The notes beneath the pieces were generated by a model, which made no database searches, was not told the DNA's origin, and was given only the letters and a program-made list of their open reading frames with translations. Below are positions 8,837 to 9,603 of a DNA stretch of 10,746 nt, piece by piece. This DNA is from a virus: the UHGV virus genome UHGV-1693931; one strand, given 5' to 3'. The translations under genes and the position numbers were made by a program. Numbering within the stretch: the stretch's first letter is position 1; every line of letters begins with the position of its first letter.

Positions 8837-8874
8837 CATGTCGCACGAACATCTTGTTCCATGCGCTGGTTGGG

Positions 8875-9603
8875 TTAGGGCAGAAAACGATCGCGAAAAT
8901 TTTGCTCACACGTGTCTGGCCATGAAGCTATCAGGATTCCTCGGTGGATTTTTAATAGCGCGCAAATCTCTGACAGAACCTCTGCGCTCGATTGCGGAGA
9001 AAGTGGATGGTGTTTCTCAAAAACCTGAATTATGGCATCAGCTAATTCAAGAGCTTTTGGCATCGTGCGACTGGCTGCATTACGAAGCCGTATTCGTGTC
9101 TCCAATTTTGAGGGACACAATAATCCTTGAGCTAAGTAAGCTGCTCGAAAGGGAAGAACTTCAGCCGCCAAAGCGTCTGACAGAAGACGAGATTCTTGAA
9201 CTTGCAAAATCAAGTCTTCCTGCCCGGGAGCGTAGTCTGGGATCTCATCGAACCCCATAGTTTCAACTATTCTCCAGACATCAATATGTAAAACTAAATT
9301 GGTAAGCATCGAAGTAGTCTGTATTAAATAGTCACTGGTCGGCAGTTGTGAATCAATAATGAATGCTGGCCAGCCTTCGATTAATAGAATCAGGTGGGTA
9401 AGCTCGTGACATAGAGTTGCCTGGCTGGTTTCCTCTTCTGGGATATGAAGCAAAGACCAGCCTTTCCCAGTGGTAAACGACATGGCGCATCTTGCTAAAA
9501 TGCGGCGCTCATGAGGCATAATTTCCAACGAAATTGGCCCCAGGCGTTTCTCTACTTCCTCAAGTAAATATAACAATTGAGCGTCTGTAACAAGCTCTCT
9601 CAT
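8875..9603 (-). CDS. hypothetical cargo protein with HExxH zincin-type motif (candidate accessory/defence gene in the G-FI hotspot)
   Basis: 242-aa ORF, the only gene on the - strand. ATG at 9603-9601, stop (TTA on + strand) at 8875-8877, fitting exactly between G and the FI upstream region. Its 5' half (9261-9603) is AT-rich and has no competing long ORF. HELTH at residues 66-70 (+ strand 9394-9408) in the context TLCHELTHLIL. A consensus TATAAT sits 23 nt upstream of its ATG. Confidence is reduced by the overlapping + ORF 8838-9260 and the weak ribosome-binding site. Confidence 0.55.
   Translation of the reverse strand: MRELVTDAQLLYLLEEVEKRLGPISLEIMPHERRILARCAMSFTTGKGWSLLHIPEEETSQATLCHELTHLILLIEGWPAFIIDSQLPTSDYLIQTTSMLTNLVLHIDVWRIVETMGFDEIPDYAPGQEDLILQVQESRLLSDALAAEVLPFRAAYLAQGLLCPSKLETRIRLRNAASRTMPKALELADAIIQVFEKHHPLSPQSSAEVLSEICALLKIHRGILIASWPDTCEQNFRDRFLP

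Follow-up and report, generated by a model that had tools for sequence, protein, structure and literature searches.

A prophage cargo cassette with two antisense overlapping reading frames, both probably coding

Two reading frames on opposite strands

The window considered here, that is the whole stretch of 10,746 nt from the virus genome UHGV-1693931, represents the late region of a P2-like prophage. Between the tail fibre assembly gene G and the tail sheath gene FI, an interval of approximately 1 kb holds a small cassette, in which two long open reading frames (ORFs) lie on opposite strands and overlap. The sequence-only reading of this DNA described them as mutually exclusive, with the plus-strand ORF as the probable loser, and mentioned a dual-coding locus as a third option. 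Analysis of selection by frame in homologues, which that reading had itself proposed, rejected neither ORF; both frames are found to be under purifying selection, and thus mutual exclusion is not supported and the third option becomes the best supported. The features of the cassette are the following.

8838-9260, plus strand: gene for a putatively all-helical orphan protein of 140 amino acids, ATG start (from the ORF listing, stop depletion and selection statistics)
8875-9603, minus strand: prophage accessory gene ("moron") for a protein of 242 amino acids, ATG start (from the ORF listing, genome annotation, a conserved family and a structure model)
8827-8831, plus strand: Shine-Dalgarno (SD) sequence GGAGG of the plus-strand ORF, within the 3' end of G and 6 nt before the ATG (from the sequence)
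8884-9207, both strands: doubly constrained core of the overlap, minus-strand codons 133-240 and plus-strand codons from about 16 to 123 (from the synonymous-difference profile and Fisher tests)
9376-9408, minus strand: codons for C65-H66-E67-L68-x-H70 and E76 (HELTHLILLIE), invariant or near-invariant alignment columns
9627-9669, minus strand: candidate sigma-70 promoter region of the minus-strand gene, with a perfect TATAAT at 9632-9627 and TGTACA-17-TATATT at 9669-9641 (from the sequence and a scan)

The stop codon of G (TAA, 8834-8836) is followed by a single spacer base (8837) and by the ATG of the plus-strand ORF (8838-8840). The earlier description of this ORF, 140 amino acids long, starting 1 nt after the G stop and with a GGAG ending 7 nt before its ATG, was exact, and its placement as if translationally coupled to G is borne out by the junction sequence. 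The overlap spans 8875-9260; it exists as previously described, with the correction that it counts 386 nt, minus-strand stop codon included, instead of 385. Plus-strand codons 1-12 fall outside the minus-strand gene; a conserved core of about 85 residues and a variable C-terminal tail can also be distinguished. Position 1 of the plus-strand codons faces position 1 of the minus-strand codons, while positions 2 and 3 of one strand face positions 3 and 2, respectively, of the other. Since the minus-strand wobble base faces the second position of a plus-strand codon, every synonymous change in the minus-strand gene is a missense change in the plus-strand ORF, making this pair easy to test.

In the 5' part of the minus-strand gene, the antisense frame of the plus-strand ORF contains 8 stops. 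The half of the locus previously called AT-rich does show such a trend, but a modest one (GC content 0.42-0.47 against 0.45-0.51). The TATAAT box attributed to the minus-strand gene was found again as a perfect copy; the promoter scan gave 1 match against 1.6 expected, and so is not significant alone, and the sequence of this candidate promoter region is conserved in two relatives, L029 and L015.

Sequence comparison and structure modelling agree with the sequence-only reading that the minus-strand ORF is a real protein-coding gene. In an identical Escherichia coli locus the Prokaryotic Genome Annotation Pipeline (PGAP) annotates it as WP_087898232, "hypothetical protein". Its family comprises 11 clusters by single-sequence search and 36 by profile search, all of them "hypothetical", with no Pfam domain and approximately 242-281 amino acids long, from Escherichia, Citrobacter, Yersinia, Arsenophonus, Castellaniella and metagenomes. 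Residues C65-H66-E67-L68-x-H70, H106 and E120 show no variation down to 34% identity, H66, E67 and H70 being constant throughout the 12 sequences compared, while E76 occurs in at least 90% of the family. The AlphaFold model has a predicted local distance difference test score (pLDDT) of 85 and a predicted template modelling score (pTM) of 0.81; in it, an N-terminal beta/alpha domain, consisting of a small sheet and then the HExxH helix, is associated with a helical C-terminal domain. In lineages without the plus-strand ORF, dN/dS is approximately 0.1 (0.07-0.16) over the full 242 amino acids. These data bear directly on the possibility that the plus-strand ORF is the sole real gene and the minus-strand ORF an artefact. 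One metagenome gene caller did take the former over the latter; however, a protein conserved over 242 amino acids where the plus frame is full of stops, with such invariant residues and such a model, already refutes this possibility, to which we give practically no credit.

The invariant HExxH on a predicted helix following a small beta-sheet recalls the zincin-type HExxH metallopeptidases, such as SprT/Spartan-like proteins, ImmA/IrrE of family M78 and the anthrax lethal-factor-like group; H106, E120 and the nearly constant E76 are additional features when the protein is set beside them. The Pfam scan yielded a SprT-like match at motif level only (E = 0.29), and Foldseek returned weak matches to models of viral SprT-like, IrrE and lethal-factor proteins; among curated peptidase families and solved zincin folds, sequence and fold searches yielded nothing significant. 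The term "zincin-like" thus denotes, for the sequence and the model alike, a resemblance and not a membership. Scans of both cassette proteins against Pfam, PADLOC, PHROGs and NCBIfam gave nothing significant, sequence-profile searches of the Protein Data Bank (PDB) found no relative for either, and both are uncharacterised families.

Retention of the plus-strand frame and selection in the overlap

The equivalent antisense frame was read in the DNA of 17 distinct members of the minus-strand family, referred to here as ORF+ lineages when they keep an open plus-strand frame antisense to the minus-strand gene and as ORF- lineages when they do not. Ten of the 17 have an open frame that begins with a start codon shortly past the minus-strand stop: the ORF has 140-142 amino acids in the window, L029, L015, L023, L016, L024 and L021, while it is shorter or longer in L025 (109 amino acids, GTG start), L022 (113 amino acids) and L004 (145 amino acids). 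Several stops interrupt it in the other seven (L017, L018, L009, L019, L002, L003 and L031). An SD sequence (GGAGG, AGGAG or AAGGAGG) is located 4-8 nt before the ATG or GTG in most of the ORF+ lineages other than L004, and is weaker in L024; a strong SD is kept before the start in nearly all ORF+ lineages, despite unrelated DNA further upstream. The window has ccGGAGGcgtaacATG, L021 has AGGAGatagaaaaaATG and L022 has AAGGAGGggttATG; in Arsenophonus, ctAGGAGagtaaaATG follows a lambda-P-like gene. The junction with a tail-fibre-assembly gene, of which a C-terminal remnant is present in L023, has the form stop-1 nt-ATG in five lineages; in L016 the gap between the lambda-P-like gene and the ORF is approximately 28 nt.

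The plus-strand frame is, by these comparisons, ancestral to the family, because it is open in the most divergent members: the minus-strand protein has 58% identity in L021, 43% in L022 and 33% in L004. In a clade with just 34% identity, a further plus-strand protein, P0019 (183 amino acids), shows 99% antisense compatibility over 149 codons with P0037 of the minus-strand family. The ORF- group formed by L017, L018 and L009 has an N-terminal identity of 0.74-0.78 to L016, to which the window has 0.74; since this group is as near to L016 as the window is, the simplest account of its ORF- state is a loss. Further independent losses are probable in L019 and in the L002/L003 pair. At least two ORF- lineages, L019 and L018, present a terminator-like hairpin at the spot of the plus-strand start, 3' of the minus-strand gene (L019, 6001-6729 plus flank; L018, 1869-2597 plus flank), e.g. 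aaaccccgcttcgagcggggttt. In the Yersinia prophage such a hairpin follows the minus-strand gene at a place that would suit a late-operon terminator, with the gene for the Q antiterminator on one side and those for a methyltransferase and lysis on the other.

Other relatives show how the cassette can decay or be rearranged. In an Escherichia sp. prophage remnant next to thrS (L027, 551-1316, and L028) the two genes have decayed together: the minus-strand gene has three in-frame stops and the change H66R, and the plus-strand ORF is cut to 106 amino acids, although this truncated form is still annotated by NCBI as the protein WP_130237095. In L024 (64-741) the first 22 codons of the minus-strand gene are replaced by unrelated sequence (MTVPVSWFFDY...), with the plus-strand ORF intact at 142 amino acids. 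In L023 (31-1181) an IS3-family transposase pair, approximately 200 nt upstream of the plus-strand ORF, interrupts an apparent tail-fibre-assembly gene, just the C-terminal end of which is left. Annotation pipelines forbid long antisense ORFs inside genes. For L029 (5001-5766) a metagenome gene caller picked the plus-strand ORF of 140 amino acids and skipped the intact minus-strand gene of 242; because callers make such opposite choices, public protein sets hold either partner inconsistently.

Antisense ORFs are common artefacts, and PGAP annotates just the minus-strand gene. The plus-strand ORF could then be a shadow of the amino acids and codon usage of the minus-strand gene, inherited open from an ancestor, a view also favoured by the lack of independent homologues, by the poor structure model of its product and by its absence in about half of the lineages. 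We regard this explanation as improbable. Stop depletion was assessed by shuffling the synonymous codons of the minus-strand gene, keeping the protein and the codon pool, and by scoring the last 128 minus-strand codons. In the window the shuffles gave 4.2 stops on average, and only the terminator of the plus-strand ORF itself is seen (open-run P = 0.007). Lineages with an ORF of 140-142 amino acids have 0-1 stops, the one being the ORF's own terminator, against means of 3.1-5.6 in the shuffles; for the six of them with a complete minus-strand gene, the open-run P ranges from 0.0002 to 0.008 per lineage, values hardly compatible with a shadow. L022 and L004 give P = 0.009-0.05, and the shorter ORF of L025 gives 0.11. 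Stop counts are near expectation in four of five ORF- lineages, the fifth, L002, having fewer (4 against 11 expected). Furthermore, a shadow would not account for an SD and a start codon recurring in unrelated flanks.

Additional information comes from the plus-strand N-terminal codons located outside the overlap. The first 12 read MSHEH[LM]VPFxGW, and for codons 2-12, comparing the window or L015 with L016 or L023, the proportion of synonymous differences (pS) is 0.80-0.95 and that of nonsynonymous differences (pN) 0.04-0.10; the minimum changes by codon position are 5/4/15. These eleven codons, with a plus-frame dN/dS of approximately 0.1 where a shadow would leave no such trace, are, on the sequence evidence, under purifying selection for which no other gene accounts. 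The saturation of their synonymous sites also indicates that divergence at this end of the cassette goes back as far as elsewhere in it.

Inside the overlap, the second frame is revealed by its effect on the minus-strand gene. Nei-Gojobori estimates for ORF+ pairs give a saturated pS of 0.75-0.98 in minus-strand codons 1-112 and of 0.25-0.45 in codons 116-242, with equal pN; between the window and L016, pS is 0.775 against 0.282 and pN 0.148 against 0.156. In ORF- lineages pS is alike in both halves. When only codons for conserved amino acids are considered, the window and L016 differ at 56 of 86 in codons 1-132 and at 9 of 79 in codons 133-240 (Fisher, p = 5e-13); four further ORF+ pairs give p from 2e-7 to 3e-4, while ORF- pairs give 0.6-0.76 and mixed pairs 0.14-0.75. 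The profile of synonymous differences is 0.6-0.7 upstream and 0.05-0.34 in the core, in ORF+ pairs only, and its step-down, at about minus-strand codon 133, corresponds to the end of the conserved plus-strand core and not to the variable C-terminal tail. That minus-strand synonymous change is suppressed only where the plus-strand ORF is present speaks against a shadow, as does the upstream saturation (pS about 0.78), which indicates ample time for stops to appear, yet several lineages are open. Recent recombination of the 3' half was considered as a cause of the low pS and rejected, because it would lower pN along with pS; pN is equal in both halves, and saturation is seen at the plus-strand synonymous sites adjacent to the overlap.

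At the protein level, plus-frame identity in the overlap is 0.67-0.73 at a minus-strand protein identity of about 73%, in comparison with 0.30-0.37 for the same antisense frame upstream and with 0.40-0.51 in ORF- pairs of similar divergence. For the plus frame the OLGenie-style ratio pNN/pNS was 0.70, with a bootstrap interval of 0.48-1.02; three control sets gave 1.15-1.41.

Suppression of synonymous change is evidence of constraint and not, by itself, proof of translation. The 3' constraint might instead derive from a non-coding function, such as a structured RNA, a cis-antisense RNA or protein-binding DNA, the plus frame being incidental; read-through from G must indeed yield RNA antisense to the minus-strand gene, and the pNN/pNS interval extends above 1. 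However, no Rfam match was found, and shuffled sequences are predicted to fold as well as the constrained 324 nt (z = -0.5 and +0.1 on the two strands), while an antisense RNA is complementary whatever its sequence and needs no conservation. This hypothesis also leaves unexplained the missing stops, the recurring SD and start, the third-position pattern of the N-terminal codons and the N-terminal extensions of distant members described below, and we judge it very unlikely.

A different possibility is that what counts is translation of the ORF as such, for example for resistance of the late transcript to Rho as far as the terminator at 9764 or for interference with the minus-strand mRNA, and that the peptide has no function. 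Tight coupling to G is in line with it, as are the variable C-terminal tail and the truncations in L025, L022 and L027. Translation per se, however, would constrain stop codons only, whereas pN in the N-terminal extension is as low as reported above, and the core of 85 amino acids is conserved about twice as well as the minus-strand gene alone would enforce; such an explanation thus appears highly improbable.

A profile of the plus-strand protein was searched against 1.84 billion protein representatives, and five more proteins resembling the plus-strand ORF were retrieved (P0019-23, 107-187 amino acids), all antisense-compatible with the minus-strand family profile (z = 10-16). Three of the five carry N-terminal extensions of approximately 35-90 amino acids before the core, which would extend past the minus-strand stop; in L004, too, the ORF has an N-terminal extension, located outside the minus-strand gene. 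Two giant repetitive proteins from the same search were taken as spurious. No relocated plus-strand gene was found in the ORF- loci, and viral-contig scans for P0020, P0021 and P0023 gave nothing. A transmembrane role for the segment CLAMKLSGFLGGFLIA is unlikely by eye, since its hydrophobic run is approximately 11-16 residues long and charge-flanked in all members.

Some observations weigh against the proposal that both frames encode selected proteins, and against the roles suggested for them below. The pNN/pNS confidence interval touches 1. The plus-strand family was never found apart from the minus-strand gene, P0016 and P0019-23 all being antisense-compatible with the minus-strand family, so that its conservation can be checked free of that gene just in the short N-terminal extension; no relatives were detected in Pfam, PHROG, NCBIfam or PDB, and AlphaFold, from an alignment of 5 sequences, gave a poor model with a pLDDT of 49. 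The ORF is not tightly coupled to the upstream gene in L022 and L021, and its absence in about half of the sampled lineages means that it is dispensable for the minus-strand gene. As regards function, PADLOC has no family for either protein, and no homology to a described defence protein, P2 Fun(Z), Old and Tin included, was detected; genomic position and the HExxH motif are the basis for the defence and neutralisation roles, which are proposed with low confidence, and transcription and translation of either strand are deduced from the DNA. With these points taken into account, a long opposite-strand overlap, an ORF length beyond chance, selection in the second frame and separate initiation signals, which are the criteria for overlapping genes (OLGs), are all found at this locus, and the evidence makes it rather likely that both frames encode selected proteins.

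Genomic slot and proposed expression of the cassette

The gene order in the window is capsid, terminase and lysis genes, followed by the baseplate genes V-W-J-I, the tail fibre gene H (6924-8234) and G. The following features surround the cassette.

8234-8836, plus strand: gene G, tail fibre assembly protein, last of the P2-type V-W-J-I-H-G late operon (Pfam Caudo_TAP, E = 2.5e-30)
9615-9773, plus strand: DNA invertase remnant of the Hin/Gin/Pin type, an ORF of 52 codons (Pfam Resolvase, E = 7e-4, positions 117-142 of 145)
9764-9781, scoring on both strands: GC-rich hairpin with a T-run, candidate terminator (from a terminator scan)
9890-10746, plus strand: start of the tail sheath gene FI, which runs off the window, right border of the cargo island (from its translation; annotation "phage tail sheath protein")

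PGAP calls G "tail fiber assembly protein" where the same locus occurs in E. coli. The Z/fun locus, between G and FI of P2-like phages, is a site that carries defences (PMC13586616), and an old/tin hotspot has also been described (PMC9122126). The cassette occupies the G-FI slot, the content of which varies among related prophages, as is expected of Z/fun cargo. It was found in 1 of 5426 complete E. coli genomes, at 100% identity; in E. coli FJ_Ec_21 (NZ_CP143627) it lies at 1114214-1114979. No similar DNA was found in phage or plasmid collections, and tblastn of the minus-strand protein against 50,697 phage records gave no match.

Related E. coli prophages have an invertible tail-fibre segment in the G-FI slot, made up of an inverted tfa'/H' pair with a recombinase (compared in the related prophage L030 at 2609-3695), and the cassette seems to have replaced the invertible half of such a switching segment. 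An active invertible segment was considered for the window and rejected, as flanking inverted repeats and an intact invertase are missing and just a C-terminal fragment of the resolvase domain is left. The otherwise identical E. coli locus (L001, 4970-5686) keeps a longer, frameshifted recombinase, besides a pseudogene that PGAP labels "DNA-invertase". The hairpin at 9764-9781 sits within the invertase remnant; from its sequence and position, it probably ends the plus-strand transcript coming from G and the plus-strand gene, ahead of the FI operon. Elsewhere in the window, in the lysis region, an ORF of 96 amino acids (3214-3504, plus strand) begins inside an ORF of 146 amino acids (2919-3359, plus strand) in another frame and extends past its end; it has a lipoprotein-like N-terminus (LTLCVGC), and the arrangement resembles the same-strand overlap of Rz/Rz1 (P2 lysB/lysC).

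On longer contigs the minus-strand gene is inserted singly, into prophages of the P2-like, Mu-like, lambdoid and siphovirus-like types, and in most cases it is opposite to its neighbours, L017 and L022 being the exceptions. A lone accessory gene antiparallel to its neighbours is the usual signature of expression from the prophage state. The explanation proposed here, which the sequence data render fairly probable, is that the cassette constitutes a compact mobile two-gene unit, in which approximately 385 bp are protein-coding on both strands; expression would be divided between the two states of the prophage. The minus-strand gene is a single-gene accessory with its own promoter-like region, usually antiparallel to the surrounding phage operon, and its product would be made in the lysogen from the TATAAT region at 9632-9627; this protein may be a phage-exclusion or host-modifying factor, like other Z/fun cargo. 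The plus-strand gene starts just beyond the minus-strand stop with its own strong SD, runs back through the 3' 128 minus-strand codons and is usually co-directional with the flanking operon. In the window, being 1 nt after G, it would form the final cistron of the late transcript V-W-J-I-H-G, which would end at the hairpin 9764-9781, and its protein would be produced when the prophage runs its own operon. Because late transcription would run antisense across the whole minus-strand gene, convergent transcription may damp the latter and the two genes may be expressed in alternation; speculatively, the plus-strand protein may modulate or neutralise the minus-strand one during lytic growth.

A stronger version of this model is an effector/counter-effector module. 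The lysogen would make an HExxH exclusion or abortive-infection effector, and lytic reading of the plus strand would both silence the minus-strand gene by convergent transcription and make the neutraliser, so that the phage would be spared by its own cargo. As effector and neutraliser share the same bases, recombination would be unable to separate them. We consider this version unlikely.

Comparison with known systems and significance

Long antisense genes in prokaryotes are a known but disputed category (reviewed in PMC7457138). Antisense OLGs have been reported in Pseudomonas aeruginosa, with ORFs of 957 nt and 1536 nt (PMC8850804), and in E. coli O157:H7 EDL933 (PMC9927249); for the P. aeruginosa and enterohaemorrhagic E. 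coli cases the evidence comes mainly from Ribo-seq or RNA-seq, and a young evolutionary age is ascribed to them (PMC8850804, PMC9927249). The cassette shares with the published OLGs a long ORF antisense within an annotated gene, an SD and start of its own, purifying selection of the OLGenie type and the fact of being ignored by annotation pipelines. Differently from those expression-based, young examples, the overlap of the cassette appears to be old and is known here from sequence alone; it persists in lineages whose partner protein has an identity as low as 33-58%, it is mobile across several kinds of phage, and sister ORF- lineages provide internal controls. Moreover, the plus-strand gene is only partly embedded, its start and at least 12 codons being outside the partner. 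Thus, on every criterion that sequence can address, the cassette fits the antisense OLG category.

Compared with the Z/fun morons, the cassette has the same G-FI position, with variable content, and a minus-strand gene that has its own promoter-like region and is oriented against the late operon. Conversely, it lacks a sequence match in the phage collection (by tblastn) and a PADLOC model, and that locus is not described as encoding a further protein on the other strand. The Gin/Cin/Pin invertible tail-fibre segments of Mu, P1, e14 and some P2-like phages occupy the same genomic slot, to which the recombinase remnant at 9615-9773 points as well; however, the cassette lacks an intact invertase, alternative fibre genes and inverted repeats at its flanks, and it is also found in lambdoid contexts with no invertase among the called neighbours.

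Coding by long antisense ORFs in bacteria and phages is disputed, and this cassette would add comparative evidence that complements expression data. The relatives without the plus-strand ORF act as natural knock-outs, in which it can be observed that the extra constraint tracks the plus-strand ORF. Being shorter than 0.8 kb and present in a complete E. coli genome, the cassette is directly testable with mutations silent in one frame. For P2-like phages, the two proteins of uncharacterised families would be of interest because they are located at a known cargo and defence site.

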